DNA from: an uncultured Streptococcus sp.
GTDB lineage: Bacteria > Bacillota > Bacilli > Lactobacillales > Aerococcaceae
Assembly (NCBI GenBank): GCA_963552295.1
Contig: CAUVJW010000001.1
Location: 1-52,200 of the forward strand
Length of the DNA: 52,200 bases
Direction of reading: 5' to 3'
How positions within the stretch are numbered: the first letter of the stretch is position 1; every line of letters begins with the position of its first letter. Below, piece after piece: positions 234 to 40,750 of this stretch. The notes below the pieces were generated by a model that saw only the letters and a program-made list of their open reading frames with translations, was not told the origin of the DNA and made no database searches. The translations under genes and the position numbers were made by a program.

Positions 234-422
234 GACGATGAGAAGAATCGAGCGGATTTTATAATAGCAGTAATGGGGGATGGCATTCAAAGTGAATTAC
301 GTACGCTTGAAAATTTATTTTCTAGAGTACGTTTGAATCTTGAAAGAGCTTGAGACTATGGCTCAAGCCGGTGCCCCATTACAGCTATTATAAAAAAATC
401 CGCAAGGATTCGAATCATCGTC
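234..422 (+). repeat. Structured intergenic element, copy A (core; degenerate palindrome extends ~105-611)
   Basis: GACGATGA(234-241)/TCATCGTC(415-422) closes a long rod; GTGAATTA 292-299, TTTGAA 332-337, GAGAC-tat-GGCTC 352-364; about 90% identical to copy E over ~160 nt by manual alignment. Confidence 0.9.
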
Positions 423-547
423 TTAGGCTAACGCTCAAGAAGCACCATAAGAAATCCTTTGCTCAGTCGATGCACTACTTATTTTATAAAAAACTCACGA
501 AAAAGCGCTGAAATATGGTATTATAGTGAAATAAGGAGGAATGCACT

Positions 548-1123
548 GTGCGAATTATTTCAGGAGAATTTGGCGGAAGACGCTTAAAGGCAGTACCGGG
601 CCAAAATACTCGTCCGACGACTGACAAGATAAAAGAATCGCTCTTCAATATTCTTGGCGGTTATTTTGACGGAGGAGTCATGCTCGACATGTACAGCGGA
701 AGCGGAGCCGTTGCCATCGAGGCCGTCTCTCGTGGGATGGAACGTGCGTTTCTATTCGAGAACAATCGCCTTGCACAAAAGACGATTGAGCAAAATATTG
801 AGATTACAAAATCACCCGAGCAATTTCATTTAAAACGACAAAACGTGAAACAAGGACTCAAAACCATTGCGAGTGATCCAGCGTTTGAACCGTTCGAGTT
901 GGTGTTTATGGATCCGCCATATCGCCTACAAGAAATTGTAAAGGACATTGAGCAGTTGCAAGAGTTGAATCTAGTTTCTCCAGATTGCGTGATTGTCTGC
1001 GAGGTGGATAAGGAAGTGCAACTTCCAGAGCGGATTTTAGACTTTGAGCAATATAAGCGTGTGGAGTACGGCATTACAGCCCTAGTGTTCTTTGACCGTG
1101 CGACTAGCGAAGAGGAGGCTTAA
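548..1123 (+). CDS. rsmD: 16S rRNA m2G966 methyltransferase RsmD
   Basis: MRIISGEFGGRRL...RPTTDKIKESLFN, SAM motif DMYSGSGA, DPPY; GTG start with AAGGAGG RBS. Confidence 0.95.
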   Translation: MRIISGEFGGRRLKAVPGQNTRPTTDKIKESLFNILGGYFDGGVMLDMYSGSGAVAIEAVSRGMERAFLFENNRLAQKTIEQNIEITKSPEQFHLKRQNVKQGLKTIASDPAFEPFELVFMDPPYRLQEIVKDIEQLQELNLVSPDCVIVCEVDKEVQLPERILDFEQYKRVEYGITALVFFDRATSEEEA

Positions 1124-1124
1124 T

Positions 1125-1658
1125 ATGAGAAAAGCGGTAGTAGCAGGAAGCTTCGACCCGATTACAAATGGGCATTTAGATATTATCGAGCGAAGCAGTG
1201 AGCTCTTCGATGAAGTGATTGTGGTTTTATCGCATAATGTTCAGAAAAATTATTTATTTTCTTTAGATGAGCGGAAATCACTGGTTGAAGAGGTAATTGC
1301 GCATGTACCTAATTCCAGAGTGGTAGCCGTAAGCGGAGGCTTAACTGTAGAAGCAGCGGCACAATTAGGAGCTAGCGTTCTTGTCCGTGGCGTTCGAAAC
1401 GCAACCGACTTTGAATATGAAGCGACTCTTGCATCTCATAACCGTGTTCAAAATGGTGATGTTGAGACAGTATTATTACTCAGCAAAGAAGAGTACCGAT
1501 TTGTAAGTTCGTCAATGATGAAGGAATTAGCTCGATTTGGAGGGGACGTAACACCGTTTGTTCCAAGTGTAGTAGCCGATGCCTTACAAGAAAAATACAA
1601 AGATGCGCCTGAACGCACAATAAAAATGGATGAGGAGATAACAGATGTCAAAGGTTAA
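1125..1658 (+). CDS. coaD: Phosphopantetheine adenylyltransferase
   Basis: GSFDPITNGHLDII, RGVR..DFEYE, VSSS motifs; ATG 1125 after GAGGAGG preferred over 1092. Confidence 0.95.
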   Translation: MRKAVVAGSFDPITNGHLDIIERSSELFDEVIVVLSHNVQKNYLFSLDERKSLVEEVIAHVPNSRVVAVSGGLTVEAAAQLGASVLVRGVRNATDFEYEATLASHNRVQNGDVETVLLLSKEEYRFVSSSMMKELARFGGDVTPFVPSVVADALQEKYKDAPERTIKMDEEITDVKG

Positions 1659-2688
1659 GAAGATTATTATTGCAGCCTTAATTTTTGTTGTATTAGCGAT
1701 TGTTGCGATGATTCCAATCCCGTATGTGATTGAATCGCCAGGGACTGCAGAAGAAGTATCCCAATTTTTAACGATTAGTGGAGCAAAAGATGAGGATCCA
1801 GGATCACTGCGGGTGCTGACGGTGTATGTCGAGCAGGCGACCGTTTTAACGTACTTTAAGAAGTTCTTGAAGCATCACGAAATGGTTCCGTCTGAAGAGG
1901 TATTCGGGGATTATACGCCAGAAGAATTCGATGCCCTGCAAGATTTCAGTATGCGTAATGCGCGTTCAAAAGCGGTTCGAGTTGCTTTTGAAGCTGCTGG
2001 AAAAACGGTCGAACGACATGTAAATGGTATTTTCGTCACACGTGTGGATCCAAACTCTAATTTCCGTGACAAGTTAAAAGTTGGAGATATTATCGAAACG
2101 ATTGATGGAAAGAGCCCAGGCAATACCGATGAGAGCTTTGAAGATTTAAGAGACTATTTAGCAGGACTTGAACCAGGACATACGCTAGTCCTTCAAGTGA
2201 AACGTGATGATGCAACAATGACAATCAGCGCGAAGTTGAAAATGAATAGCCGTACTGGTGGTATCCGTCTTGGATTTGGCGGGGAAGTGGATGAAGATGT
2301 GACTTCTGACCCATCCGTTGAATTCGACGCACATGGCGTAAGTGGCCCTTCAGGTGGTTTGATGTTCACGCTTGAAATCTATAACCAAATTACGAATAGT
2401 CATTTGAAAAACGGACATAACATTGCCGGAACAGGAACGATTGAATTAGATGGAACGGTTGGACGTATCGGTGGAATTGATAAGAAATTAGTAGCTGCGG
2501 TTGAAGCAGGTGCGACAGTTTTCTTAGCACCTGATGATGAAATCACGGATGAAATGCGTGCACGTTATCCAGATATTAAATCAAACTACGAAGAAGTCAA
2601 AGAAGCGGCTGAAAAGCTAGGAACAGATATTAAAATTTATCCTGTGAAGACTTTGGATGAAGCTATTGAAATTCTAAAAAATCTATAG
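1645..2688 (+). CDS. ylbL: Membrane-anchored PDZ/Lon-like serine protease (YlbL/SepM family)
   Basis: N-terminal TM, PDZ region, SGPSGGLMFTLEI and IAGTGTI...GRIGGIDKK Lon-type motifs; conserved rsmD-coaD-ylbL synteny. Confidence 0.85.
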   Translation: MSKVKKIIIAALIFVVLAIVAMIPIPYVIESPGTAEEVSQFLTISGAKDEDPGSLRVLTVYVEQATVLTYFKKFLKHHEMVPSEEVFGDYTPEEFDALQDFSMRNARSKAVRVAFEAAGKTVERHVNGIFVTRVDPNSNFRDKLKVGDIIETIDGKSPGNTDESFEDLRDYLAGLEPGHTLVLQVKRDDATMTISAKLKMNSRTGGIRLGFGGEVDEDVTSDPSVEFDAHGVSGPSGGLMFTLEIYNQITNSHLKNGHNIAGTGTIELDGTVGRIGGIDKKLVAAVEAGATVFLAPDDEITDEMRARYPDIKSNYEEVKEAAEKLGTDIKIYPVKTLDEAIEILKNL

Positions 2689-2747
2689 CCAATGAGTCAT
2701 TTTTCTCATATCTTTAATTGGAGAAATCTTTTTAAGGAGTGAGAGGA

Positions 2748-3380
2748 ATGGCTTTTTTTGATGAGTGGAAAGAAAAATGGGAGTCGTGGAGTTTAGCGGT
2801 CAAAGGCGCGGTCATTGGTGGAGTGCTTCTTTTATTAGTTGGTATTGGGTCGTTTGTGTCTAAAAAAGAAGAAGCTGTGGAAGAAACCGAAGCGGTGGTA
2901 ACGACAGTCTTGGCGGAGAAAACGGAAGAAAGTACGACGCTAGAAGCGGTTATTTTCGTTGATATTAAAGGGGCCGTGAAAAAGCCGGGAGTCTATCAAA
3001 TGAAGGTTGGGGACCGTGTGAAAGACGCGATTGATGCCGCAGGAGGACTGACAGCGGAGGCAGATAGCCAGAAAGTGAACTTGGCGCAAAGAGTAGAAGA
3101 CCAGATGGTGATTGTTGTGCCAAAAGTGGGAGAAGAAGCTGAGGCAATTCCAGCGGGTGCAACGAGTAAAGAAGCATCCAAAGAAGGAAAAGTGAATATT
3201 AATACGGCAACGGTGGAAGAGCTGAAGACATTGAAGGGTGTCGGCGAGAAAAAGGCCGAGGCGATTATCGAATACCGAAAGAAGAATGGTTCGTTTAAGA
3301 CGAAGGAAGACTTGATGAAAGTCCGCGGCATTGGCAAGAAGCTCTTCGAGTCCTTTGAGGAAAGGATTGTGACGCAATGA
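2748..3380 (+). CDS. comEA: Competence DNA receptor ComEA
   Basis: TM, VDIKGAVKKPGVY SLBB domain, C-terminal HhH (KVNINTAT..EL..LKGVGEKKA..IIEYR). Confidence 0.92.
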   Translation: MAFFDEWKEKWESWSLAVKGAVIGGVLLLLVGIGSFVSKKEEAVEETEAVVTTVLAEKTEESTTLEAVIFVDIKGAVKKPGVYQMKVGDRVKDAIDAAGGLTAEADSQKVNLAQRVEDQMVIVVPKVGEEAEAIPAGATSKEASKEGKVNINTATVEELKTLKGVGEKKAEAIIEYRKKNGSFKTKEDLMKVRGIGKKLFESFEERIVTQ

Positions 3381-5704
3381 GTTACTGGATACTAGCAGTT
3401 CTTGTAGCGTCAGGCATCGTTGTCTTTGAAGGGACAGTCGCTTGGTGGATTGTCCCTTTATTCATCATTGTTGTGGCGTGGAAACGAGGGCACGAAGCTT
3501 GGAAAAGAGTAGTCGGTGTCATGCTATGTGTAGCGGTTGGGGTACGGCTGTTTTTGTATGTACGTGAAATGTCTCAACCTGCTTTTACTGTCGATGATGC
3601 GATACAGGGGCAACTCGTGTTAAATCCAAACCAGTTGAAGGTGAATGGGGATTTGGTAACGGGAACGGCCACGCTGGAAGCAGGAACGAAGCACGAGAAA
3701 GTCTTTTTTTATTACGTACTGGAGTCGGAATCTGAGCAACAAGCCTTCTTGCAGTTGCGAGAAGTAGTCAGAGTTACGGTGGACGGGACCATTGAAGAAA
3801 TTGAGCATGCACGCAATAAAGGGAATTTCGATGCGAAAAACTACTATTTGAGTCTTGGTGTGCTTCATGCCTTAAAAGTCGAGCGAATAAATTCTAGTAT
3901 GAAGTCCGTCCCAGATTTCTGGAGCTATGTGGAGCATCTGCGGTCTCAGTTGTTGCGAGTTGTAAGAACTCAAAAAGACAGCCGCATCAAACAATATACA
4001 GGAGCCTTACTCTTGGCGGACCGAACGGGTTTTAGCGAAGAAGAGTGGGAACAATATAAACAGCTTGGCCTCTTGCATCTCTTAGCGATTTCCGGATTAC
4101 ATATCTCCTTAATGGTCGCCTGCATTGAACGACTCTCGTGGCGAAGCGGTATTACTAGGGAGAAAACGAAGGGATTACTGGTGCTGTTTGTAGTGCTCTA
4201 CGGATTTGTGATTGGCTGGAATATTAGCGGCACCCGTGCGATTGGAATGGTGTTGTTAGCCGCCTTATCCAAACCGTTCATCAAAAGACGTGGAAGCATA
4301 CAGATGGATTGCTTACTCTGGATGGCGATTGTTTCCATCCTCCTTTGGCCAGGCATTCTTTTAAATGTGGCCTTTCAACTCAGTTATGGATTAACAGCCA
4401 TTATTATTTTTCTCTCGAAATGGCAACACGCGGTCTTGCCTCGCATTCGGGCTAATTTGTGGGTGCCGATTGGGATGAGTCTGATTGCATTGCCGCTTCT
4501 GTGTCAGTATTTCTTTTACTGGAATGCGCTGAGTATTCTTTTGACCGCGCTCTTTTCGATGCTATTTGAAATGCTGCTATTTCCATTGTTAACCGCCTAT
4601 TTATTCGCGGTACTTTTTGGTTTTGTTCCGCTAATAGAACTTCTGACAACGATTGGAGAATTCATTCTTTCTGGAGTTTCTCGTGTCCTTGCGTTCTGCC
4701 AGCAGTTGTCCTTTACGAAATTCATACTGGGGATTTGGGACAAATGGGAAGTGGTTCTCTTTCTTACAATCCTTATTGTCGTCGGGATTTTATTCGAGCA
4801 AAGAAAGATGACGATAAAAAAAGGAGTCCTATCTATACTCGCCATACTTGCGCTATTAATTGAAGTACCATATCACTGGGGAACAGAACTCGTGATGGTG
4901 GACGTTGGGCAAGGGGACTCCATCCTTTTACTAGCGCCAGGTTGGAATCAGGCGACACTTATCGATACAGGTGGCCTCTCGGATTTTAAACAGAAAGAGG
5001 CGTGGCGGCACAGGAAGAAAAAAGACCAAGGAATTACGACAGTTGTTCCCGCCTTGCAAGCAGAAGGCCTCTCGGAGCTCTCACAAGTCATGTTGTCTCA
5101 TGGGGACGAAGACCATGTTGGAAACTTAAAAACCATCGCCAAGCATCTCACTATCCGTCAACTCATTATCGGGAAAGGCATGGAGAAAATTCCACTGATG
5201 CAGGAGATGAAGAAGAGGCATCCAACGATACAATGGCGATTAGTACTGGCAGGAGACGAGTGGAAATGGAATGAGACGAAATGGAAGGTGCTATGGCCAA
5301 AAGGTTTGTCTCATGCGGAAAATGAAGACTCGATACTGGCGCTAGTGACAGTGATGAAGCAGACCATTCTTCTCACAGGAGACGCTTCAGAGAAGGTGGA
5401 AGAGGCTGTCGTTCAGGCGTATCCAAACTTGCGGTTCTCAATCCTTAAAGCGGGGCATCACGGGAGCAGGACATCGAGTGGCGAGGCGCTGCTCAAACTC
5501 GTTCAACCAAGGCTCGCGTTCATATCGTGTGGGAAGCACAATCACTATGGGCATCCCAGTCCAGAGACTTTGGCGAGCTTGAAAGCTACTGGCGCTATCA
5601 TTTTCCGGACGGATCAAGACGGGCAAATTCGGCTTCGTTTCACCCGCGAAAAATTAGAAATCACAACGACACTTACGAAACGGAAAAAAGAATTGAAACA
5701 ATAG
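3377..5704 (+). CDS. comEC: DNA uptake channel ComEC/Rec2
   Basis: HLLAISGLH competence domain, DVGQGDS, SHGDEDH and GHHGS metallo-beta-lactamase motifs. Confidence 0.93.
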   Translation: MSYWILAVLVASGIVVFEGTVAWWIVPLFIIVVAWKRGHEAWKRVVGVMLCVAVGVRLFLYVREMSQPAFTVDDAIQGQLVLNPNQLKVNGDLVTGTATLEAGTKHEKVFFYYVLESESEQQAFLQLREVVRVTVDGTIEEIEHARNKGNFDAKNYYLSLGVLHALKVERINSSMKSVPDFWSYVEHLRSQLLRVVRTQKDSRIKQYTGALLLADRTGFSEEEWEQYKQLGLLHLLAISGLHISLMVACIERLSWRSGITREKTKGLLVLFVVLYGFVIGWNISGTRAIGMVLLAALSKPFIKRRGSIQMDCLLWMAIVSILLWPGILLNVAFQLSYGLTAIIIFLSKWQHAVLPRIRANLWVPIGMSLIALPLLCQYFFYWNALSILLTALFSMLFEMLLFPLLTAYLFAVLFGFVPLIELLTTIGEFILSGVSRVLAFCQQLSFTKFILGIWDKWEVVLFLTILIVVGILFEQRKMTIKKGVLSILAILALLIEVPYHWGTELVMVDVGQGDSILLLAPGWNQATLIDTGGLSDFKQKEAWRHRKKKDQGITTVVPALQAEGLSELSQVMLSHGDEDHVGNLKTIAKHLTIRQLIIGKGMEKIPLMQEMKKRHPTIQWRLVLAGDEWKWNETKWKVLWPKGLSHAENEDSILALVTVMKQTILLTGDASEKVEEAVVQAYPNLRFSILKAGHHGSRTSSGEALLKLVQPRLAFISCGKHNHYGHPSPETLASLKATGAIIFRTDQDGQIRLRFTREKLEITTTLTKRKKELKQ

Positions 5705-5751
5705 ACAAAGACTCGTTTTCAAGATAAACTAAAACAACAGGAGGCGAAGAA

Positions 5752-6783
5752 ATGGAATTTGAGAAACAGCTCAATCGAATTAAAAAAGGGCAAGTCAGTC
5801 TGGTTTATCTCGTTCAAGGGAAAGAACCGTACTTACAAGAGCTTGCACGTAAAGTATTTTTGGGCACCATTGTCGCTCCTGAAGATCAAGATTTGAACGT
5901 GGGACGATTCAATATGGATGAAGTGTCCGTTCAAACCGCGGTTCAAGATGCCGAGTCTGTGCCATTTTTTGGAGACCGCAGATTGGTTATGATTGATAAT
6001 CCAACGTTTTTAACAGGGGAGAAGGAAAAGAAATCCATCGACCATCAGTTGGACCGCCTACAAGCGTATTTAGAAAATCCGATGGATAGTTCGGTGATGG
6101 TTTTCTTTGCGCCGTACGAAAAGTTGGACCAACGTAAGAAAATCGTGAAACAGTTGAAGAAGGTTGCCGTTCTTCTCGATGCAAGCGAACTCTCAGAACG
6201 CGATGTGAGACAATACATCAAGGACTATTTACGTTCGCAACAATATGGCATTCAAGAAGAGGCGTTAAACACTTTACTCCTCAAGACACAATACTCGCTT
6301 ACCACTTGTATGAAAGAGCTTGATAAATTAATGGTTGCCGAAATTGGAACGTATTCCATTCGACTTGAAACGGTCGAGGCGTTAGTGGCTAAAACCTTGG
6401 AACAAAGCATCTTTGATTTTGGAGAAGCCATCCTGAACAAAGACAGCAAGCGTGCCCTTCAAATTTATCATGATATGCTATTGCAAAAAGAAGACCCAAT
6501 CAAAATGAACGCGATTCTATTAGGCCAATTCCGCCTATTGCTTCAAGTATCGTATTTGAAAAAAGCCGGCTACCAAGAACCCGAAATTCAAAAGACACTC
6601 GCAGTGCACCCGTATCGCGTCAAACTCGCACTCAACCAATGTCGTCGCTACGGAACACCATTATTGGAAGCAGCCTTCCAGCAATTAGTCGAAACCGAGT
6701 ACGCATTGAAAACCAGCGTCGGCATCAAAGAAATGCAATTGGAATGGTTCATCCTCCAATTTTGCGGCCAAAGAACGTTATAA
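5752..6783 (+). CDS. holA: DNA polymerase III delta subunit
   Basis: YLVQGKEPY, SVPFFGDRRLV, HPYRVK; canonical position after comEC. Confidence 0.92.
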   Translation: MEFEKQLNRIKKGQVSLVYLVQGKEPYLQELARKVFLGTIVAPEDQDLNVGRFNMDEVSVQTAVQDAESVPFFGDRRLVMIDNPTFLTGEKEKKSIDHQLDRLQAYLENPMDSSVMVFFAPYEKLDQRKKIVKQLKKVAVLLDASELSERDVRQYIKDYLRSQQYGIQEEALNTLLLKTQYSLTTCMKELDKLMVAEIGTYSIRLETVEALVAKTLEQSIFDFGEAILNKDSKRALQIYHDMLLQKEDPIKMNAILLGQFRLLLQVSYLKKAGYQEPEIQKTLAVHPYRVKLALNQCRRYGTPLLEAAFQQLVETEYALKTSVGIKEMQLEWFILQFCGQRTL

Positions 6784-6925
6784 TTAGTCTGTTTGAAACG
6801 TCGATATCTTATTAAAGATTTCGGCGTTGAGTTGTTTGTAAATAATTATCTAATTTTAATTAAAATTTGAGTTGAATTAATAAAAATATGTGGTACAATG
6901 TATATACAATTAAGGAGGGGTTAAA

Positions 6926-7144
6926 ATGAGTACAATTTCATTACGTTTAAATAAAGAAGAAGAGCGCCTTTTTAAAAATTATGCAGACTTTACCGGAGAA
7001 GGGTTAACGACCCTATTAAAGAAAGCATTAACTGAAAAAATTGAAGAAGAATATGATTTACAAGCTGTAAAAGAGTACGAAAGTGCTAAAGCAAATGGAG
7101 AAGTTATATTAGTTGACCATGAGGAATTCTGGGGAGACTTATAA
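6926..7144 (+). CDS. Type II antitoxin (RHH, RelB/DUF6290-like)
   Basis: 72 aa, TISLRLNKEE ribbon-helix-helix start, acidic C-terminus, TAATG overlap with toxin. Confidence 0.75.
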   Translation: MSTISLRLNKEEERLFKNYADFTGEGLTTLLKKALTEKIEEEYDLQAVKEYESAKANGEVILVDHEEFWGDL

Positions 7145-7419
7145 TGAGGTACACACTTTTTTATGATGAACGTCTCAAAAAGAAAATTAAAAAATTAGAT
7201 AATGGAACAAAAGTAATCTTAAAAAAATGGCTTGAAAAAAATTTGATAGACTGTGAAGATCCAAGAAGTAAGGGGAAACCTCTGAGTGGAACTTTATCAA
7301 AATATTGGAGATATAGAGTTGGAAATTATAGATTAATTGTAGAAATCGAAGATGACCAATTAAAAATTATAGCCTTTGAATTTGCGCATAGAAGCAGTGT
7401 TTACAAATTTATTAAATAG
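7144..7419 (+). CDS. RelE/ParE-family type II toxin
   Basis: 91 aa basic protein with GKPLSG..WRYRVGNYRLI..AHRSSVY RelE signature. Confidence 0.85.
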   Translation: MRYTLFYDERLKKKIKKLDNGTKVILKKWLEKNLIDCEDPRSKGKPLSGTLSKYWRYRVGNYRLIVEIEDDQLKIIAFEFAHRSSVYKFIK

Positions 7420-7428: not shown

Positions 7429-7704
7429 ATGGAATTACTAATCGTTATCATCGCTGTTGTTTTAGTAGCGGTAATCGCCCTTGCGTTCCGCACAAAACTA
7501 AATACCAGCGGAGCGGTGGAACAAACACCATCAACACAAGAAAGTACACCAGTAGAAGAAGCGTACATCCCAGAAGAATTAGAAGAATACTTACGCGAAT
7601 TGAAACGCAATGGACAATCGATTAAAGCCATTCAAAAATTACGTAACGTAACAGGAATGAGCTTGTCAGAAGCCAAACAATTTGTCGACGATATTATCAT
7701 TTAA
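7429..7704 (+). CDS. Small membrane protein with ribosomal L7/L12 C-terminal-like motif
   Basis: N-terminal TM, IKAIQKLRNVTGMSLSEAKQFVD; TAGGAG RBS. Confidence 0.6.
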   Translation: MELLIVIIAVVLVAVIALAFRTKLNTSGAVEQTPSTQESTPVEEAYIPEELEEYLRELKRNGQSIKAIQKLRNVTGMSLSEAKQFVDDIII

Positions 7705-7759: not shown

Positions 7760-7880
7760 ATTTCGGACCCTTTACATTATTCGGGGAATATTTTTGGCAC
7801 CTTTTCCTACCCCGGCCACCCTTTCTTTTCCCCCTCCGCCTTCGAATTGATTGGGCTTCTTTTTTTATCTTTAATAATTT

Positions 7881-8131
7881 ACGCCTTACGGATAGCGCGT
7901 TAGAGTAGAACACAAACGAAGAACTCACTGGATTTCATCGTAATCATAATCGTGTTTCAGCAAGCAATGTGAATTACTGAGGGTTAGGGGTTTATCTCTT
8001 ACCCTCAGTTTGAAGCTTGCTAGACTTGAGACTTCGGCTCAAGTCGGTGCAATGATTATGATAACGATGAAAAAATCCAGAGGAGTTCGAAGGGTGTGTT
8101 CTATTCTTTTCATTCATTACCCGTAAGGCGT
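7881..8131 (+). repeat. Structured intergenic element, copy B
   Basis: ACGCCTTACGG/CCGTAAGGCGT and AGAGTAGAACACA/TGTGTTCTATTCT arms; AGCAA-t-GTGAATTA(7969)-CTGAGGG..CCCTCAG-TTTGAA-gc-TTGCT; GAGAC-ttc-GGCTC. Confidence 0.88.
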
Positions 8132-8147
8132 TCTTATTTTTGAGCAT

Positions 8148-8178
8148 AAAAAAAGAGCCCGAGATCAATTCTCAGGCT
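8148..8178 (-). terminator. rpsT terminator
   Basis: Minus strand AGCCTGAGA-attga-TCTCGGGCT-CTTTTTTT. Confidence 0.8.
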
Positions 8179-12288: not shown

Positions 12289-12541
12289 TAGAAGACTGGG
12301 CACCTGGGTGACAGTATAGTGAACAATGTTGATTACTCCAAATCCTTACGGATATCTTCATAATAGCTATAACGTTGCACCGGTTCGAGCCTAGGTCTCT
12401 CACCTTTAAAGCCTCAAAGGGAGCGTACGGAATAAAATTCCTACGCTCCCTTTTTCGCATTTAATGCCATCCCACGTTATGGCTATTATAGAATCCGTAA
12501 GATTTTTCGTAATCAACTTTCTAATAAGGCCCAGTCTTCTA
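12289..12541 (-). repeat. Structured intergenic element, copy C (reverse orientation)
   Basis: TAGAAGACTGGGC/GCCCAGTCTTCTA ends; minus strand TTAAA-t-GCGAAAAA-GGGAGCGTA..TACGCTCCC-TTTGAG-gc-TTTAA, GAGAC-cta-GGCTC, CGGTG. Confidence 0.88.
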
Positions 12542-21637: not shown

Positions 21638-21867
21638 GTGCTTACTAAAAAATGAACTTCGTTCAAAACTTCGAACACTGAAGGATTTGTTTATAATAGC
21701 TGTAATGGGACAACGGTTCGAGCCTGTCGTCTCTCACCTCAAAAGCCTCAAAGGAGCCGTACGGAATGACTTCCTACGGCTCCTAATTCGCATTTTGTGT
21801 TATTCCCCATTACTGCTACTATAAAATCCTTCGTGTTCTCCGTTTTGAACATTTTTTTGAGTGATAC
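21638..21867 (-). repeat. Structured intergenic element, copy D (reverse orientation)
   Basis: GTTCAAAAC/GTTTTGAAC arms; minus strand CAAAA-t-GCGAATTA-GGAGCCGTA..TACGGCTCC-TTTGAG-gc-TTTTG, GAGAC-gaca-GGCTC. Confidence 0.88.
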
Positions 21868-24272: not shown

Positions 24273-24350
24273 AAATTAGACTGGGGGCTCCTCAGTCTTT
24301 TTGTTTTCAGAAAGTGAAACTTTTTAACGATAAGAAAAGAGGTTAGATGG

Positions 24351-24656
24351 ATGTCGTTTATTAGAAAAAATGTACTACTGGAAGAGGGAACGTTCTTTTA
24401 TTATCTACATGAGGAAAGCCTCTTTCACGAAGAATCTTATAAGGAATTATGTGCGTATATTGAAGGGTTGGAATCTATTTCATTAGAGGACTTTAAAGAT
24501 CTTGTTTTTCTTCATCACCAATTGATTCGTCATTTAGTGTATCATTTTGACCCTGTGGATATTGTTGAATTAAAGAGCATTCCAAAAGATTATTGGGAAG
24601 TGATTGAAAGAATAGACATTGCGGTGAAAAGAATCACTCAGAAAGTCAAATGCTAA
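24351..24656 (+). CDS. Small acidic protein, possibly Imm41-like immunity protein
   Basis: 101 aa, F-x-R-x-N..GTFFYYLHE..F..ESY..L pattern recalled from Imm41-type proteins; own RBS and terminator; not confirmed. Confidence 0.4.
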   Translation: MSFIRKNVLLEEGTFFYYLHEESLFHEESYKELCAYIEGLESISLEDFKDLVFLHHQLIRHLVYHFDPVDIVELKSIPKDYWEVIERIDIAVKRITQKVKC

Positions 24657-24867
24657 GAATAGGTACTCCAATAGAAGGGTAGAAAGAGAGTTGAAGTAAT
24701 CATTTCAACTCTTTTTTGCGTATAAAGGGTGGAGACTCTACTTTAGAATGTTGCTAAATTGTTACAAAAGAAAGCGGTTCACAAAGAAAAATGTAATCTA
24801 ATATATATGTTTTAGTAGAAAGAAATCCTTTATAATGGAACATGATAAACTCTATGGAGGTGAGACT

Positions 24868-28392: not shown

Positions 28393-28668
28393 CCGCCTCC
28401 TCCCGCTTTTTACAGTTTGGAATGCGCTGTGATTACGGGCGGAAAATCTAGCGGATTCAATAGTATCAGTAATGGGGGATAGCATTCAAAGTGAATTACG
28501 TACTCTTGAAAATTTTTTCTAGAGTACGTTTGAATCTTGAAAGAGCTTGAGACCGTGGCTCAAGCCGGTGCCCCATTACAGCTATTATTGATAAATCCGC
28601 AAGGATTTGAAGCCCGTAAAGTCTTATTCCTTAAGCATTTTTAAAGAATAAAAAGCAGGAGTCGGCGG
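28393..28668 (+). repeat. Structured intergenic element, copy E (palindrome extends ~28336-28751)
   Basis: TTACGGGC/GCCCGTAA, GCGGATT/AATCCGC arms; GTGAATTA 28491; GAGAC-cgt-GGCTC; close to copy A. Confidence 0.9.
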
Positions 28669-33884: not shown

Positions 33885-34709
33885 ATGGCACTTTTACACG
33901 TTTCATTTTTTTCAAAAACATTAATGAGAACCATCCCGCTGTCAGTCTACTTGCCTAGCGATGCGGTGGATTTTAATAATCAGTATCTCTCGGAAGGTCC
34001 GTACAGAGCGTTGGTGTTACTGCATGGAGTGTTAGGCAGTGAACAGGATTGGGTCAATCAAACGCGCATTCTTCGATACGCCAAAGAGAAAAATCTCGTC
34101 CTCATCATGCCTTCTGGTGAAAATCATTTTTACGTAGACCAACCGTGGAACTATACGAACTATGGAGAATTTATCGGGGTGGAACTACCAGAAATCTCAC
34201 GCCGAATGTTTCCTATATCTCGAAAACGGGAAGACTTAGGTATTGCCGGGCTTTCAATGGGTGGCTACGGAGCGCTTCGAAACGGTATCAAATATCCCGA
34301 CACCTTTAGCGTCATAGGGGCGTTCTCTAGCGCGATTAAGAAACAGGTACTTCCACCAGAGGAGATTCCAGAAGCACCGTTCTTTTTAAGAAAAAGCTTT
34401 TTGGAGGCGGTCTTCAAAGATGAGGAGACCTTTGTGGCGGAAGGCAATCAGTTGTATCATGCCGTCCAAACAATGGAGCATAAGGACGCGCTCTCGGTCT
34501 TTATGGCATGTGGTACAGAAGATTGGCTTTTGGAAGACAATCGTAGCTACAGCAGCTTTTTGAAAGAACAAGGAGTGTCGCTAACGTATCAAGAGCACGT
34601 CGGCGGACACGAATGGGATTTCTGGGACTGGGCGATGAAGCAGTTCCTAGACTGGTGGATTCCAGAAGATGCAGACCAAGGTGTGTCTAGCGGGAATGTG
34701 AAATCGTAA
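33885..34709 (+). CDS. Alpha/beta hydrolase, tributyrin/acetyl esterase family
   Basis: LLHG, GLSMGG nucleophile elbow, CGTED, GGHEWDFW. Confidence 0.85.
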   Translation: MALLHVSFFSKTLMRTIPLSVYLPSDAVDFNNQYLSEGPYRALVLLHGVLGSEQDWVNQTRILRYAKEKNLVLIMPSGENHFYVDQPWNYTNYGEFIGVELPEISRRMFPISRKREDLGIAGLSMGGYGALRNGIKYPDTFSVIGAFSSAIKKQVLPPEEIPEAPFFLRKSFLEAVFKDEETFVAEGNQLYHAVQTMEHKDALSVFMACGTEDWLLEDNRSYSSFLKEQGVSLTYQEHVGGHEWDFWDWAMKQFLDWWIPEDADQGVSSGNVKS

Positions 34710-34766
34710 GACGAGCGCGATATTGTTGCAAGCACATCACCATAATGGTAGAATATTTTGTATATT

Positions 34767-35002
34767 AGAGCGATGAACAAGAGGAGTAAAATGACTTTGT
34801 TTACGAGAGAGGGAAGACTTGGTGAAACTTCCTAGCAGATTCATTTGAAGGTAGCTTGTGAGCTTACTCTACGAAATGCAGTAATAGAGTACGGAGACGA
34901 CACTTCGTTACCAACATCGAGGCGTAATGAATGATTACGCGAATATTAGGTGGTACCACGAAATCAATCGTCCTATGGAGAGTGTCTTCATAGGATTTTT
35001 TT
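34767..35002 (+). promoter_or_regulatory. Valine T-box riboswitch leader
   Basis: Stem I AGAGA/GGTGAAA motifs, GTA (Val) specifier at 34851, T-box AGGTGGTACCACG 34948-34960, terminator 34971-35002; promoter TTGCAA(34726)-17-TAGAAT. Confidence 0.93.
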
Positions 35003-35036
35003 ATTGGACACAAACAAGATACAAGGAGGAAAATCA

Positions 35037-37679
35037 ATGGCTAAAGAAATGTCATCTAAGTTTCAACCACAAGAAGTTGAAGCTGGTAAATATCAATGGT
35101 GGGTTGATTCAGGTGTCTTCCATCCAAACGAAGATCCAAATGCTGAACCTTATTCAATCGTTATCCCGCCACCAAACGTAACAGGGAAATTACACTTAGG
35201 ACATGCTTGGGACGTAACGTTACAAGACATGATTATCCGTCAAAAACGTATGCAAGGGTTCGACACTTTATGGTTACCAGGGATGGACCATGCTGGGATT
35301 GCAACTCAAGCAAAAGTAGAAGAAAAATTACGCGGAGAAGGTTTGTCTCGTTATGACCTTGGCCGTGAGAAGTTCCTTGAACAAACATGGGAATGGAAGG
35401 AAGAGTATGCCAGCCATATCCGAGAACAATGGGCAAAAATGGGGATTTCTGTAGACTACCGCAGAGAGCGTTTCACATTAGATAAAGGGTTATCTGACGC
35501 CGTGAAGAAAGTCTTCGTAACTTTATACGAAAAAGGCTTAATCTACCGTGGTGAGTACATCATCAACTGGGACCCTAAAGCCAAAACATCATTATCCGAT
35601 ATCGAAGTTATCCATAAAGACGTAGAAGGCGCGTTCTATCATATGAACTACCCTCTAGCAGACGGAAGTGGATTCCTAGAAATCGCAACAACTCGTCCAG
35701 AAACACTTCTTGGAGATACAGCGGTTGCGGTTCACCCAGACGACGAACGTTACCAAGCGCTTATCGGGAAAACAGTTATCTTGCCGTTAGTAAACCGTGA
35801 AATTCCAATCATTGCTGACGAATACGTTGAGCAAGATTTCGGAACAGGGGTTGTAAAAATCACTCCAGCGCATGACCCTAATGACTTTGAAGTAGGGAAC
35901 CGTCACAACTTACCTCGTATTAACGTGATGAACGATGATGCGACAATGAACGAGTTAGCAGGTAAATACGAAGGCATGGACCGCTTTGCTGCGCGTAAAG
36001 CCATCGTGAAAGATTTGGAAGAAGCTGGCCTTCTTGTGAAAATCGAAAAACATTTACACAGCGTTGGTCACTCAGAACGTACAGATGTCGTTGTTGAACC
36101 ACGTCTTTCAAAACAATGGTTCGTTAAAATGGGACCTTTGGCAGAACAAGCCATCAATGCGCAACGTGAAGAGGGCGACAATACTGTAAACTTCTACCCA
36201 CCACGTTTCAATGATGCGTACTTACGCTGGATGGAAAACATTCACGACTGGGTAATTTCACGTCAATTATGGTGGGGACACCAAATTCCAGCTTGGTATC
36301 ATAAAGAAACAGGCGAAGTATACGTAGGCATGGAAGCGCCAAGCGATATCGAAAACTGGACACAAGATCCAGACGTATTAGATACTTGGTTCTCATCTGC
36401 GTTATGGCCATTTTCAACAATGGGTTGGCCAGACGAACAAGCAGCTGACTACAAACGTTATTATCCAACGAACACACTTGTAACAGGATACGACATCCTT
36501 ACTTTCTGGGTAAGTCGTATGATGTTCCAAGGATTAGAATTTACAGGCAAACGTCCATTCAAGAACGTTTTAATTCACGGATTGATTCGTGATAGCCAAG
36601 GTCGTAAGATGAGTAAGTCTCTTGGAAACGGGGTTGACCCAATGGAGGTTATCGAGCAATATGGTGCCGATGCGCTTCGTTGGTTCTTAGCAAACGGTTC
36701 TGCTCCAGGGCAAGACGTTCGTTACTCAACAGACAAGATGGATGCTGCATGGAACTTCATCAACAAGATTTGGAATGCAAGCCGTTACGCATTAATGAAC
36801 GTGGGCGACTTAACAGCGGACCAAGTGGATATCACTGGTGAGAAGACACTTGCGGATAAATGGATTTTAACGCGCTTGAATCAAACGATTGGCAAAGTGA
36901 CAGAACTCTTCGAGAAATTCGAATTCGGTGAAGCAGGACGTCTCTTATATCGCTTCATCTGGGATGATTTCTGTGACTGGTATATCGAAATGTCGAAAGA
37001 AACATTAGCAGGGGACGACGAAGCTGCGAAATTAACAACACGTAGCATTCTTGTATATGTATTAGACAACACATTACGTCTATTACACCCAATCATGCCT
37101 TTCGTGACAGAAGAAATCTGGCAATCTGTTCCTCACGTTGGGGAATCATTAGTGGTCGCAACTTATCCAACAGTTCACCCAGAACAAATGGATGAAAAAG
37201 CAGCCGAAGAAATGGAATTCTTAATGGACTTTATCCGTTCAGTACGTACGGTTCGTAATGAAATGAACACACCATTATCAAAACCAATTAACATCATTGC
37301 GAAAGTGAGCGACGCTGCGCACTACGCGATCTTGAAAGAAAACGAATCTTACATTGCACGCTTCTCAAATCCAGAAGAATTCGTGTATGGTGAAGACGTT
37401 GAAGCGCCATCTGATGCGGTTACTTCAGTCATCACAGGTGCTGAAATTTACTTGCCGTTAGCAGGGCTAATCAACATCGAAGACGAAATCGCTCGTCTTG
37501 AAAAAGAAGCAGAGAAATTGCAACAAGAAGTGGATCGTGTCGAGAAGAAATTATCGAACGAGAAATTTGTGGCAAAAGCTCCTGAAGCGGTTGTTGAAGC
37601 TGAACGTGCAAAAGGTGCGGACTATCAAGCACAACGCGAAGCCGTGTTAGAACGTATCGCAACATTAAAGAAAATCTAA
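35037..37679 (+). CDS. valS: Valine--tRNA ligase
   Basis: [19 protein letters not shown]-terminal coiled coil; ATG 35037 after AAGGAGG. Confidence 0.98.
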
Positions 37680-37786
37680 TCCGTTTCAATGGCGGGGAGA
37701 GCGTATGAAGTGTCATGCGCTCTCTTTTGTATGTTCCAAAGAGTCATTTTCTGTTATGATAAATGAGGAAAACAGGAGGTGAGTGA

Positions 37787-39058
37787 ATGATTCAAGAGTG
37801 GTTAAAAAAGAGCGAGAGTATTCCGCGTAAACATGGATTGTACCGCATGGAGGCTATCCTAGAAGCACTTGGAAATCCAGAACGAGGGTTGAAGACTATT
37901 CATATTGCTGGAACGAATGGAAAAGGGTCCACTGCGGCGATGGTAACGGCCTTTGCGAAGGCGCATGGATTGCGAGTAGGGACATTCACTTCACCACATA
38001 TGGACAGTATTAAGGAACGGATTCAGCTAGACGGAGTGCCTCTAGGGGAAGAGCCGTTCTGGCAAGCCGCATCGGTCGTAAGAGAGGTGGAGAACCGCTT
38101 ATTCGAAGAGTGGGGCGCCTTTAACTATTTTGAGATTTTAACGGCGATGATGTTTGTCGTCTTTCAACAGGAAGCTGTCGACCTTGCAATTATTGAGGTC
38201 GGGATTGGAGGTCTTCTCGATAATACGAATGTTGGGCATCCACTCGTCAGTGTCATTACGACGATTGGGTTGGATCATCAAGACTTACTCGGAACTACGT
38301 TGGAAGAAATTACGGCGCAAAAAGCAGGGATTATTAAGGCTGGGCAGCAAGTGGTTGTCGGGCCAGTTACGCGTGAATGTATGGATGTGATACATAGTAC
38401 CTCTAGTAAACAAGGTGCAACAGTGCAGGCGTTTGGGGAAGATTTTTCACTAGTAGAAGATTCGTATCAAGATGCAGTATTCACGATTTCGCTGAAGCAG
38501 TTAGCCCTTAACGGAACCTTCCAAAAGGAGAATGCGACTGTTGCGATTCGAGCGTTTCGCGCGTGGATGGAAGCTACGGGTAGAAGTGTGCAGGCCGAAT
38601 TCATCGAGGCGGCATTACAAGTGGTTTCCTGGCCAGGGCGCATGGAAGTATTGCAAGCGACACCGCTTGTGATCATCGACGGAGCCCATAATTTACCAGC
38701 TATCGAGCGACTCGTTCAAAACATGACGGCTCACGTTGGCAAGAAACAGACGCTGTTATTTAGCGCGCTCACTCGAAAAGATAGTCAACAGATGCTTCTA
38801 AGGTTGCAGGAAGCTCTTCCTGACGTGAACATCATCTTGACGAGTTTCCATCCTTCAAGAGGCATGTCGATTGCTAGAAGTGATGTGGAAGCGTACTTGG
38901 ATTCTCCACAGGTTTCTTATGAAGAAAGCTTTGAAGACGTCATCGACCGTTTCGCCAGTGTAACAGACGATAAGACCGAATTATGGGTGACGGGGTCATT
39001 GTATTTTATCGCCGAAGTTCGACATTGGTGGAAGAACCGTAAGCCCAAAGAAGAATAG
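37787..39058 (+). CDS. folC: Folylpolyglutamate synthase/dihydrofolate synthase
   Basis: HIAGTNGKGS, FTSPH, EVGIGG.LD.TN, WPGR, DGAHN, GSLYF. Confidence 0.93.
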   Translation: MIQEWLKKSESIPRKHGLYRMEAILEALGNPERGLKTIHIAGTNGKGSTAAMVTAFAKAHGLRVGTFTSPHMDSIKERIQLDGVPLGEEPFWQAASVVREVENRLFEEWGAFNYFEILTAMMFVVFQQEAVDLAIIEVGIGGLLDNTNVGHPLVSVITTIGLDHQDLLGTTLEEITAQKAGIIKAGQQVVVGPVTRECMDVIHSTSSKQGATVQAFGEDFSLVEDSYQDAVFTISLKQLALNGTFQKENATVAIRAFRAWMEATGRSVQAEFIEAALQVVSWPGRMEVLQATPLVIIDGAHNLPAIERLVQNMTAHVGKKQTLLFSALTRKDSQQMLLRLQEALPDVNIILTSFHPSRGMSIARSDVEAYLDSPQVSYEESFEDVIDRFASVTDDKTELWVTGSLYFIAEVRHWWKNRKPKEE

Positions 39059-39101
39059 ACATCGTAACTCTTTGTAGAGAAAACAAAGAGGAAGTGTCAC
39101 A

Positions 39102-39785
39102 ATGATTGAATCAAAATTATTAGAAGTGCCTTTAAGCGCTATGCCACGAGAACGCCTCGAACGGTATGGCGCTAAAGTGCTTGAAACGCATGAATTACTC
39201 GCGATATTACTGCGAACAGGGTCCAAGGATTTAAACGTCCTGCAACTGGCGGTTGTTGTCTTAAACACCTTCGAGGACTTGCATTCGCTGAAGATGGCGA
39301 GCCTGGACGAACTCATGCACATTAATGGCATCGGCAGAACCAAGGCAATTGAACTCAAGGCAGCGATGGAACTTGGGGTGCGCTTAAGTAATGCCGCGCA
39401 AATGAAACTCGGGAAGATTACGTCCTCCAAGATGGCCGGCCAGTGGATTGTGCAGGAGTTGAAGGATGCCTATCAGGAACATCTTGTCGCCTTGTATTTG
39501 AACACGAAAAACGAGATTATCAAGAAGAAAATGATCTTCATCGGTGGTTTGAACAGTGCAGTGGCGCATCCTAGAGAAATCTTCCGGGAGGCAGTACGGT
39601 TTTCGGCGGCGCGCGTCATCATTGGCCATAATCACCCAAGCGGAAATCCCGAACCCTCCCAAGCGGATATCGATTTTACACGTCGCTTGATGGAGTGTGG
39701 TGAACTCATGGGCATCGAGCTTCTAGATCATTTTGTAGTCGGAGGAGAGGAGTACATTTCTTTAAAAGAATTCGGGGCTTTTTAA
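39102..39785 (+). CDS. radC: RadC/UPF0758 JAB-domain protein
   Basis: PRERL...ELLAILLRTG, HPREIF, HNHPSG..PS.AD, LLDH. Confidence 0.93.
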   Translation: MIESKLLEVPLSAMPRERLERYGAKVLETHELLAILLRTGSKDLNVLQLAVVVLNTFEDLHSLKMASLDELMHINGIGRTKAIELKAAMELGVRLSNAAQMKLGKITSSKMAGQWIVQELKDAYQEHLVALYLNTKNEIIKKKMIFIGGLNSAVAHPREIFREAVRFSAARVIIGHNHPSGNPEPSQADIDFTRRLMECGELMGIELLDHFVVGGEEYISLKEFGAF

Positions 39786-39948
39786 AAACGACTCAAAAGA
39801 ATGTGAAAAGTTGAATTTTAGAAAAAGATGAAAACAGATTGTTTTCAATTTTCACGAAAAATAATATTGAAAATTAACGAAACGATTCGGAAAAAACGCA
39901 CAAAACGGCAATTGTTCTACTTAATTCTCAGTGAAATCGGAAATACTC

Positions 39949-40083
39949 TTGCAAATTTGCCTGTGAGATGTTATACTTAGGTTGTGTTTTTGTTATGTAA
40001 AGAAATTGTGTAAGATATTACTCCTTTCGAACCATTAGCAAGAATATCAATAACAAGTGCTATGGCACAAGGAGGAAATGTTC
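39949..40083 (+). promoter_or_regulatory. cspA promoter and long 5' leader
   Basis: TTGCAA(39949)-17-TATACT(39972) with extended TG; ~100 nt UTR typical of csp genes. Confidence 0.6.
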
Positions 40084-40284
40084 ATGGAACAAGGTACAGT
40101 AAAATGGTTTAACTCAGAAAAAGGTTTTGGGTTTATCGAACGTGAAGGTGGAAACGATGTATTCGTACACTTCTCAGCAATCCAATCAGAAGGATTCAAA
40201 ACATTAGAAGAAGGACAAGCAGTTCAATTCGATGTTGAAGAAGGCGCTCGTGGACCACAAGCAGCTAACGTAGTTAAACTATAA
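40084..40284 (+). CDS. cspA: Cold-shock protein
   Basis: [27 protein letters not shown]; terminator 40302-40328; exact paralogue name uncertain. Confidence 0.92.
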
Positions 40285-40490
40285 TTTAACTTAAACTTTG
40301 ATACCACCGGTTTTCCGGTGGTTTTTTTGTGCGCAAAAACAGAAGAGTCGAAGCTTAAAATGTACAAATTTGGCCATGTCCATATATGGCCTTTTTGTCC
40401 TCCCCCTCCCAAGAATTTCTTTTTATTTTTGTCCTTTTTTAGTAAGTTGGTTTCAAAATTATTGGTGATTTTTTGTTAGAAGCTGCCCCA

Positions 40491-40750
40491 GCTGGAATGG
40501 GAGAAACAAGTGCGAATCGATTTTTGAAAAACGAAGAGTCTTCGGATTCTATAGGAATAATAATAGCGGTCATAATCGATGTGAATTACTGACTCTGGAA
40601 ATTCATTTCCTAGAGTCAGTTTGAAGCTCGATAGGAAACGAGACCTGGGCTCGTTCCGGTATAGCTATTGTTGTTCCTATGAAGATATCCGAAGGTGTTT
40701 GTAGTTTTTCAAAACAGCACAAAACATCTAATTGTTTCTTCCATTCCAGC
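40491..40750 (+). repeat. Structured intergenic element, copy F (palindrome extends ~40412-40873)
   Basis: GCTGGAATGGGAGAAACAA/TTGTTTCTTCCATTCCAGC arms; ATCGA-t-GTGAATTA(40581)-CTGACTCT..AGAGTCAG-TTTGAA-gc-TCGAT; GAGAC-ctg-GGCTC. Confidence 0.88.

Follow-up and report, generated by a model that had tools for sequence, protein, structure and literature searches.

What is the palindromic element that recurs, in both orientations, along a 52,200-nucleotide stretch (the window) of the draft genome G000 (1.43 Mb, 83% complete), and what keeps its fold so constant? The observation of a six-copy structured family, made initially on the letters of the window, is confirmed. The family consists of non-coding imperfect palindromes and belongs to a known type of bacterial repeat; what is unusual is how well its branched core is conserved.

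A rod capped by a three-way junction

The initial annotation had proposed six copies. Each of them was found, with coordinates and strand unchanged, and a covariance model built from the six recovers exactly those six in the window. Copy A (234..422, + strand; model core 240-416, 186.3 bits) is closed by an outer stem in which GACGATGA (234-241) is paired with TCATCGTC (415-422). Its three-way-junction head (286..372, + strand), read from the letters with a structure given by RNAalifold and the covariance model, comprises a P2 helix (TTCAA at 286-290 with TTGAA at 340-344), the 5' junction motif GTGAATTA at 292-299, a P3 hairpin (300-331), TTTGAA (332-337), a P4 hairpin bearing GAGAC..GGCTC (346-368) and CGGT (369-372). 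Copy B ("form 1"; 7881..8131, + strand; model core 7916-8093) has a rod that runs on into flanking DNA (about 7842-8172), with two similar arms resembling terminators opposed to each other there; the stretch that differs among species alleles covers 7875-8134. Copy C (12289..12541, - strand; model core 12335-12510), with AGAAGACTGGGC/GCCCAGTCTTCT as its outermost stem, starts 6 nt beyond the stop of the aspartate-semialdehyde dehydrogenase gene, to which it is antisense. Copy D (21638..21867, - strand; model core 21668-21843) lies between the convergent groEL and SUKH-family genes, copy E (28393..28668, + strand; model core 28439-28613) downstream of a Mur-ligase gene, and copy F (40491..40750, + strand; model core 40530-40705) about 160 nt beyond the terminator of a cold-shock gene. 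The contexts described at the outset (A, E and F sense, C antisense, B and D between convergent genes) match both the ORF list and the Pfam matches. The motifs GYGAAWWA, TTTGAR, GAGAC-N3-4-GGCTC and CGKT are all present, and the 5-bp helices TTCAA/TTGAA, AGCAA/TTGCT, TTAAA/TTTAA, CAAAA/TTTTG and ATCGA/TCGAT read as had been reported.

The six copies fold as a long rod capped by a three-way junction. Three parts make up this junction: a hairpin arm whose internal loop is GA-rich (GYGAAUUA / UUUGAR), the small hairpin GAGAC..GGCUC and the linker CGGU. Rod length is variable, and the whole element measures between about 180 and 400 nt. It is the central head that is conserved, and the outer arms show no sequence conservation; the conserved blocks CGGATT.TATA and CGAAG are located within the rod, with CGAAG motifs on the same strand in both arms. 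RNAalifold, run on a plain MAFFT alignment of the six copies, gives 61 pairs, 35 of which have at least one compensatory double change. The RNA fold of copy B reaches -119.1 kcal/mol, compared with -60.8 +/- 4.5 in 200 shuffles (z = -12.95; 0/200 as good), and its complement folded as DNA gives z = -12.43. Among the G000 copies, pairing is found in 93.2% of 3990 cells and compensatory changes at 58 of the 61 pairs; this level of pairing was reached by none of 500 shuffles, and slid partners pair in just 36-43% of cells. The 43 copies from other genera carry the same head motifs, are 93.9% paired and covary at 57/61 pairs; in all genera the two adjacent hairpins of the head are enclosed by a rod of at least 30 pairs. 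The claim that stems covary around fixed junction and loop motifs is thus borne out.

That this pattern indicates selection on a single-stranded fold, as had been concluded, holds only in part. The model score is strand-specific (186 bits on one strand versus 27 on the other), and the asymmetry of the conserved motifs favours recognition of a single strand. In contrast, the variable stems are nearly pure Watson-Crick, with 136 G.U/U.G against 97 A.C/C.A, both clustered in few columns, and mismatches are almost nil in the nine proximal P3 pairs and in five of the seven P2 pairs. Stems without an excess of G.U, together with a random orientation relative to genes, fit better with stems whose pairing is preserved in the DNA itself or on both strands than with a one-strand RNA, and it is in this way that, judging from the alignments, the stem pairing looks to be maintained. 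The family thereby offers a clean case in which strong covariation alone does not prove RNA, the stems being Watson-Crick only and the modules exchanged between copies, which matters for the interpretation of covariation statistics on repeated elements.

Abundance and spread of the family

The expectation of many more copies per genome proved correct: a covariance model search found 65 full-length and 4 partial copies in G000, and 76 matches in its complete relative G023. The window holds 6 copies per 52 kb, versus a genome average of about 1 per 22 kb. Spread within the genus is patchy, the element being present in 19 of 24 genus genomes and not found in 5; in another comparison, 6 of 31 genus genomes had no shared element-type match. 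At the level of the order, 22 of 151 genomes have the element, confined to three of nine families, and none of the 93 genomes sampled from families f4-f9 matches. In the family of Enterococcus lemanii, 9 of 121 genomes match, and an Enterococcus-like genome (G129, near E. diestrammenae, not E. faecalis) gives 20 weak matches. Aerococcus, Jeotgalibaca and some Enterococcus have shorter relatives (about 150-185 nt) that share the head motifs.

Searched against Rfam 15 at gathering score, the window returned only a T-box and cspA, neither overlapping a copy; copy E at E<=10 gave just three chance-level matches (E>1), and five loci of other genera at E<=0.1 gave no match on the elements. The family is therefore absent from Rfam, for the window copies as well as for the loci of other genera. 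A likeness to the Bacillaceae-1 RNA, which the initial annotation had suggested, is not supported: copy E gave no match to that family even at E<=10. A large and deeply conserved structured family, spanning three Lactobacillales families, is thus missing from Rfam; for Granulicatella, it is undescribed in the literature searched.

Placement, conservation and change in place

Gene contexts could be counted for the 39 G000 copies flanked on either side by a long ORF or lying inside one: tandem genes flank 12 copies in sense and 14 in antisense, convergent genes flank 11 and divergent genes 1, and the remaining copy is within an ORF. Background intergenic regions number 690 tandem, 76 convergent and 78 divergent, so that convergent intervals hold 11/39 copies versus 76/844 in the background. 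Copies sit at gene 3' ends in either orientation, and in many cases no more than a few tens of nt separate the start of the element from a stop codon. A run of at least five T within 30 nt on the 3' side accompanies 15 of 63 copies, and a run of at least five A on the 5' side accompanies 20 of 63, compared with 6.7% of random 30-mers. Most copies are therefore not classical terminators; assignment to an intrinsic terminator or SPRITE-like class was rejected, hairpin plus T-run being enriched yet in the minority.

Copies A, D, E and F hold their place in the relatives searched. The core of copy A is 96.6% identical in G023 versus 86.6% for its flanks, and that of copy C 97.7% versus 83.8%; the core of copy D shows 99.4% identity in G018 (flanks 94.3%) and only 81.8% in G023 (flanks 92.2%). 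Core identity equals or exceeds that of the flanks in 16 of 21 ortholog comparisons, which are not independent of one another, and three of the five exceptions are replacements. The rod arms of copy E are orthologous to those of G018 and G023, with flanks 94.7-96.2% identical. Its head (28499..28568, + strand), replaced by a copy-A-like head in G000, holds 38 of the 44 core differences from G023 and 36 of the 42 from G018, a distribution which we read as a probable tract of ectopic gene conversion. Locus B has two unrelated variants among species, plus a chimera in G041 in which form 2 has entered the site of form 1. Copy C is missing in G018, where a terminator-like hairpin and T-run stand in its place, and one copy, complete in G046, has lost its centre in G000, G004 and G007. 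Adjacent pairs of copies are frequent in G023 (13 versus about 2 expected). Presence/absence polymorphism among relatives was thus observed, in few events, and only two (copy C in G018 and locus B) resemble true gain or loss instead of conversion.

The copies are old: pairwise identity of the cores has a median of 0.56 and a maximum of 0.92; without near-identical copies, no recent transposition is shown. The description of the family as mobile is consequently apt as history and not for the present, since no two cores exceed 92% identity and most window copies are positionally kept across species. The family is now almost sedentary. It changes through head swaps by ectopic gene conversion, through replacement or nesting at occupied sites, and through central deletions that leave short terminator-like hairpins; such decay suggests one possible origin of terminators and 3'-end structures.

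No consistent direct target duplication was seen at the flanks, which prolong the palindrome instead: flanking positions are Watson-Crick complementary in proportions of 0.56-0.68 at offsets 1-7 and 0.48 at offset 8, compared with about 0.3 for mismatched partners. TA is found at both junctions in about half of the copies and, being self-complementary, makes duplication and palindrome indistinguishable there. The arms are inverted repeats throughout, and their extreme ends vary from copy to copy. In the G000 assembly, at 83% completeness, no inverted pair of arm motifs 400-4000 bp apart encloses a gene; the two arm-motif pairs found correspond to separate known copies. No plasmid or phage carrier was found.

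Known repeats and competing explanations

Several described families invite comparison: EFAR, the Enterococcus faecalis/faecium repeats (De Gregorio et al. 2009 FEMS Microbiol Lett 292:7, cited in PMC3733652), and the related Efa-1, 163 bp in 65 copies and described as a "pair of adjacent stem-loops" (PMC2267715); the BOX, RUP and SPRITE repeats of Streptococcus pneumoniae (MITE review PMC10969869); and the enterobacterial ERIC/IRU and REP/BIME (PMC2267715, PMC3733652). EFAR elements are, like the present family, high-copy, non-coding, structured, intergenic, palindromic "miniature insertion sequences" of Lactobacillales, of about 160-170 bp in enterococci compared with 150-190 nt for the present family in Enterococcus-type genomes. 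BOX, RUP and SPRITE are likewise abundant, structured, intergenic, clustering, inserted into one another and in some cases terminator-like, and BOX, in a further likeness, is not known to have an autonomous partner. ERIC and REP are imperfect palindromes at gene 3' ends, which keep orthologous places, are largely immobile and are more conserved than junk would be, gene conversion having been proposed for REP. The classical MITEs (Correia/NEMIS, bcr1, Nezha) also resemble the present family in being small, non-coding, multi-copy and near genes, with inverted ends.

There are also differences. EFAR, compared here by its description, reportedly consists of two stem-loop modules (B and T), each folding on its own, with an unstructured linker, whereas the present family has two hairpins inside one long rod, at a three-way junction. 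BOX is modular (A-B-C), unlike the rod with junction found here. ERIC is a simple 127-bp hairpin and REP measures 20-40 bp; both differ in phylum and sequence, and are devoid of a conserved branched core. In MITEs, the terminal inverted repeats are conserved, the target is directly duplicated and a parent IS usually exists, whereas the ends are the least conserved part of the present elements, no direct duplication was seen and no parent was found in G000. The functional likeness to REPINs, EFAR and bcr repeats that had been suggested thus stands as regards a multi-copy, non-coding, structured 3'-end family, but not as regards a REPIN-like dependence on a Y1 transposase.

Indeed, movement of the element as ssDNA by a domesticated Y1 (RAYT/TnpA) transposase, in a REPIN-like or IS200/IS605-derived manner, appears very improbable. 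The hairpin architecture, the strand-specific motifs and a weak replication-linked orientation bias would suit it, but the Y1 transposase PF01797, present in 13 of 31 genus genomes, is absent from the element-bearing G000 (83% complete) and from the complete G023 with its 76 copies, yet is found in G014 and G024, which have none. This gene distribution largely refutes REPIN/RAYT; moreover, it is the centre and not the ends that is conserved, element length far exceeds that of REP hairpins, and a short-hairpin (20-40 bp), inverted-pair build with conserved ends and a variable middle was not found. The orientation bias itself (27 of the 76 G023 copies co-oriented with the replication fork, p = 0.015, with the terminus assumed opposite dnaA), which flips with the replichore, could also befit DNA structural sites used by the host. 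As for REP/BIME, the long palindromes between gene ends would then be extruded, or be bound by nucleoid or topoisomerase proteins, and supercoiling between transcription units would thereby be relieved, consistent with the enrichment between convergent genes, the Watson-Crick-only pairing on both strands and the positions conserved among species. We nevertheless hold this to be quite unlikely: the bias is modest, the asymmetric head is left unexplained, we know of no binding protein for the element, and the element, which was not found in 5/24 genus genomes or in most genomes of the order, does not answer a general need.

A functional structured RNA family deserves more weight, as a possible yet doubtful alternative. 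The copies would be independent small RNAs or cis-acting 3'-UTR modules, the junction binding a conserved host protein and the rod acting as a protective or processing helix. Besides the strand-specific motifs and score, this agrees with the U.G closing pair beside the GA-rich loop (conserved in 28/64 copies in G000 and 29/42 in other genera), the 6x6 GA/U-rich internal loop, the same-strand CGAAG motifs, a fold conserved over three bacterial families, the cores of A, C and D more conserved than flanking genes, and the many starts shortly past a stop codon, from which co-transcription would follow. However, copies show no preferred direction relative to the gene upstream (12 sense, 14 antisense), so that in half of the cases transcription would yield the complement of a cis-acting RNA. 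On reading the consensus, there appears to be no convincing promoter at a fixed place, the variable stems are devoid of the G.U pairs usual in evolving RNA helices, relatives carry the element patchily, copies disappear or lose their centre with no obvious harm, and seventy copies per genome would be unusual for an RNA gene.

The explanation that we favour, to which we accord about an even chance, is a palindromic insertion sequence comparable to EFAR, BOX and ERIC, non-autonomous and by now nearly sedentary, whose core is predicted to serve strand-specific recognition by a protein. The element would have come into a clade of Granulicatella adiacens type and, in a patchy manner, into other lineages akin to Aerococcaceae, Carnobacteriaceae and Enterococcaceae, and would have multiplied to about 70 copies at gene 3' ends. 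Its strand-specific head may be read by a putative enzyme supplied in trans, although we know of no such partner. Pairing would be kept at the DNA level by arm-to-arm templated correction and selection, making a hairpin possible on either strand; such a hairpin would suit the 3' ends of transcripts coming from either side, or a DNA hairpin or cruciform. A tolerated or useful role of this sort would account for resident copies matching or exceeding the adjacent genes in conservation.

Several observations run against this insertion-sequence explanation. Y1 transposase genes do not follow the element, G000 holds no longer element sharing the arm motifs, and neither consistent direct target duplications nor near-identical copies were seen. 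True gain or loss is suggested by two events only, and most copies are not classical terminators. Resident copies are more conserved than neighbouring coding DNA, which suggests a host function and is not predicted by a purely selfish reading. The conserved U.G pair and the same-strand CGAAG motifs are typical of folded RNA.

The junction, with its GA-rich 6x6 loop, U.G closing pair, GAGAC..GGCUC hairpin and same-strand CGAAG boxes, could also be the working module of an undescribed Lactobacillales system, either a widespread protein-bound structured RNA class on a palindromic chassis or the recognition site of a putative enzyme that would copy heads into sites already occupied, a proposal that we consider unlikely. 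Were the head to bind a protein or to direct site-for-site replacement, the mechanism would be new; with a head-copying enzyme, replacement would be homing-like, a mode of spread unlike transposition with target duplication.

The elements also have a practical consequence. In G000, 26 of the 65 copies lack a long ORF on at least one side before the contig end, and contigs from four public runs often terminate at the elements, which thus break the short-read assemblies of these oral bacteria.

The repeat family and its fold

All six copies of the structured element described in the initial annotation were found, with coordinates and strands as claimed: A at 234-422 (+), B at 7881-8131 (+), C at 12289-12541 (-), D at 21638-21867 (-), E at 28393-28668 (+) and F at 40491-40750 (+). 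The motifs and helices listed for them agree exactly with the sequence (alignment A1 of the six copies), each copy forming a long base-paired rod closed by a three-way-junction head. The six cores (the stretch covered by the covariance model R1, which was built from these copies), aligned plainly with MAFFT and folded with RNAalifold, gave 61 predicted pairs, 35 of them having one compensatory double change or more. The fold of copy B is much stronger than chance, with -119.1 kcal/mol as RNA against -60.8 ± 4.5 in 200 shuffles (z = -12.95), and a z-score of -12.43 for the DNA fold of its complementary strand.

The element as a whole had not been recognised at the outset, and no Rfam 15 family was found on the copies. 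At gathering thresholds, the matches in the whole window were limited to a T-box and a borderline match to cspA, both located elsewhere, and copy E searched at E ≤ 10 gave three matches, all at chance level. The likeness to the Bacillaceae-1 motif suggested initially was thus not borne out, since no Rfam 15 family matches, the relaxed search with copy E included.

A search with R1 of the window's own draft genome (G000; 154 contigs totalling 1.43 Mb at 83% completeness, with 39% G+C) retrieved 65 full-length and four partial copies, three of the latter being truncated at contig ends. In the resulting 69-row model-fitted alignment, which is biased towards R1 and with which the independent six-sequence fold and the single-sequence z-scores concur, standard pairs occupy 93.2% of 3990 cells, versus 69.6% in shuffles. 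Changes on both sides are seen in 58 of the 61 pairs, and paired cells drop to 36-43% when the 3' partner is shifted by 1-3 columns. None of 500 shuffles attains any of five pairing measures.

When flanks of 110-150 nt were added, the rod was prolonged far outwards in many copies, the largest extended hairpins reaching about 380 nt and -150 to -185 kcal/mol. The outer arms show no sequence conservation from copy to copy. Within a copy they are complementary, with 56-68% Watson-Crick pairs at offsets 1-7 past the model ends and 48% at offset 8, compared with about 30% in a control that pairs 5' and 3' flanks taken from different copies. No direct target duplication was visible at the element flanks.

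Hosts, age and turnover

A pattern scan in which each species was represented by a single genome gave contigs labelled as Granulicatella (G. adiacens, unnamed species, and MAGs under other labels), Jeotgalibaca, Aerococcus and Enterococcus lemanii. Matches are present in 19 of the 24 genomes of the genus sample, the richest having at least 67; the complete genome G023 has 76 and another complete genome of the genus, G009, none. The order sample gave matches in 22 of 151 genomes, with 9/19, 10/19 and 2/19 in families f1, f2 and f3 and 0/93 in the other six families, and the family of E. lemanii in nine of 121. Forty-three copies taken from these further genera retain the architecture at a shorter length (about 150-190 nt), with 93.9% of cells paired and compensatory changes in 57 of 61 pairs. 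They also retain the head consensus, aATGTGAATTAc ... gTTTGAAGCTtg. AAG. GAGAC..GCTC. CGGTC, and carry a CGAAG ... CG(A/T)AG box pair on the same strand close to their ends; no Rfam family overlaps them.

Head-only matches in E. lemanii were considered as an insertion sequence and rejected, as they correspond to a repeat variant of about 290 bp with a longer second hairpin. In this variant (genome G047, loci L261-L263), the head retains TGTGAATTA and TTTGAAGCT and the second hairpin is far longer; at least three copies adjoin paralogous flanking sequence.

No match was obtained by blastn of copy E against plasmid and phage collections, nor from plasmids queried with a copy from genome G129. 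Among viral contigs, 75 stretches matched the head pattern and the model confirmed one (L344). Its three copies border the host genes Asp23 and FakA next to phage-like genes, which places the copies in host DNA beside a prophage.

Pairwise identity of the G000 cores has a median of 56% and a maximum of 92%, so no burst has occurred recently. The position of copies A, D, E and F is retained in relatives with 73-96% flank identity. Truly orthologous cores are at least as conserved as their mostly coding flanks: 96.6% versus 86.6% identity for copy A, 97.7% versus 83.8% for copy C, and 99.4% versus 94.3% for copy D in the related genome G018. The same holds in 12 of 14 comparisons on a second contig.

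Replacement is seen at other loci. At locus E, the rod arms are orthologous with those of G018 and G023, whereas the head (28499-28568) is unlike both and nearly that of copy A; this head is read as an ectopic conversion tract, with the shared rod segments GTAATGGGG and CCCCATTAC as its borders. The G023 ortholog of copy D has a different head. Two unrelated variants are found at locus B in different species, and in G041 the second is fused to the first variant's 3' arm, which looks like one element arriving at an already occupied site. Entire modules pass between copies, so that the 'compensatory' signal comes in large part from such exchange rather than from stepwise compensation.

Five to ten relatives were probed for empty sites with DNA queries of 7-20 kb, and a single absence was detected, that of copy C in G018, where a hairpin, GGGCTGGAT..ATCCAGTCC, followed by T6 stands in its place; the same comparisons also uncovered gene-content indels unrelated to the elements. 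Contigs of four public DNA runs provided no clean empty site and mostly stop at elements. Short-read assemblies, the G000 draft among them, are fragmented by the repeats, the contigs of runs X1-X4 often ending at copies B, C and D. One element is full in G046, and in G000, G004 and G007 only a short hairpin of its own outer arms is left, followed by a T-run. GGAT-loop-ATCC hairpins of this sort were also considered as a pre-existing target family; the 12 present in G000 lie within the control range (median 6, 95th percentile 20). Since no abundant family is thus indicated, these short hairpins are read as remnants of central deletions and not as targets.

Placement and nature of the element

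Gene context was counted for the 39 G000 copies that are either flanked on each side by a long ORF or embedded in one; the remaining 26 of the 65 have at least one side without a long ORF before the contig end. Twelve copies lie between tandem genes in the sense orientation, 14 in antisense, 11 between convergent genes, one between divergent genes and one inside an ORF, for a background of 690 tandem, 76 convergent and 78 divergent intergenic intervals. Gene 3' ends are therefore preferred, with no preferred orientation to the gene. In G023 (n = 76), 27 copies are co-oriented with the replication fork and 49 opposed (p = 0.015), with dnaA at the record start and the terminus taken as opposite dnaA. 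Neighbours less than 700 bp apart number 13 in this genome, versus about two expected. A run of at least five T within 30 nt 3' of the element accompanies only 15 of 63 copies. Promoters were also considered, but the conserved TATAAT of the arms seems to lack a good -35 box (consensus read by eye).

The fold could be read on one strand, as in an RNA, or pair at the DNA level on both. One-strand reading is favoured by the model score of 186 bits on one strand versus 27 on the other, by a conserved U.G pair adjoining a GA/U-rich 6x6 internal loop, and by the CGAAG boxes, which lie on the same strand and so cannot form an inverted repeat. DNA-level pairing is in turn favoured by the fully variable head stems P2 and P3, which are nearly pure Watson-Crick, by the random orientation towards genes, by the exchange of modules between copies, and by a G.U/U.G count (136) barely above that of A.C/C.A (97), both being confined to few columns. 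This last asymmetry, weak and position-bound, does not decide between RNA and DNA. No RNA run was present among the 24 listed public runs carrying sequence.

The repeat family is real, strongly structured and ancient, and new to the databases searched. It most likely represents a palindromic insertion sequence that is non-autonomous and now almost immobile, with the branched core as a putative recognition site and a hairpin tolerated or used at gene ends. It is of the same kind as EFAR, BOX, ERIC and REP, namely a structured palindromic intergenic repeat, and differs by their defining tests from REPINs and classical MITEs, as well as from any Rfam family. A REPIN/IS200-like mobilisation by a Y1 transposase did not hold: Y1 genes occur in 13 of 31 genomes of the genus, including two element-free ones, and are absent from G000 and the complete G023. 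No longer element sharing its arm motifs with the family was found in G000, and neither search provided a candidate partner enzyme. The nearest named candidate, compared by description only, is EFAR of enterococci, which has a two-module build. Efa-1 is described as a 'pair of adjacent stem-loops' (PMC2267715). In the literature searched, nothing relevant was found on such repeats in Granulicatella.

Neighbouring features

The T-box leader (34764-34978, +; 130.6 bits for a gathering score of 93) lies directly 5' of a 909-aa ORF (34950-37679), overlapping its called start; the ORF probably encodes an aminoacyl-tRNA synthetase regulated by the T-box. The borderline cspA thermoregulator match (39986-40329, +; 79.1 bits for a gathering score of 78) covers a cold-shock gene together with its terminator, about 160 nt ahead of copy F. 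Right behind this terminator, at about 40380-40396, G018 (L216) and G046 (L217) have an extra 1.1-1.4 kb, which in G018 encodes a 369-aa membrane protein absent from the window.

Just upstream of copy B lie two 91-aa ORFs (+), the first (7144-7419) for a ParE-family toxin and the second at 7429-7704, an order unusual for parDE. A 431-bp stretch (24312-24742) with a 101-aa ORF (24351-24656) without Pfam match is present here; G018 and G046 have 8 bp in its place, and contigs from two of the public runs also omit it. Another stretch, of 2 kb (46095-48090), carries a fumarate-reductase-like 585-aa flavoprotein gene (FMN_bind and FAD_binding_2); it is present in G023 and missing from G046 and G018, which have 3 and 19 bp instead, and is thus a gene-content polymorphism.
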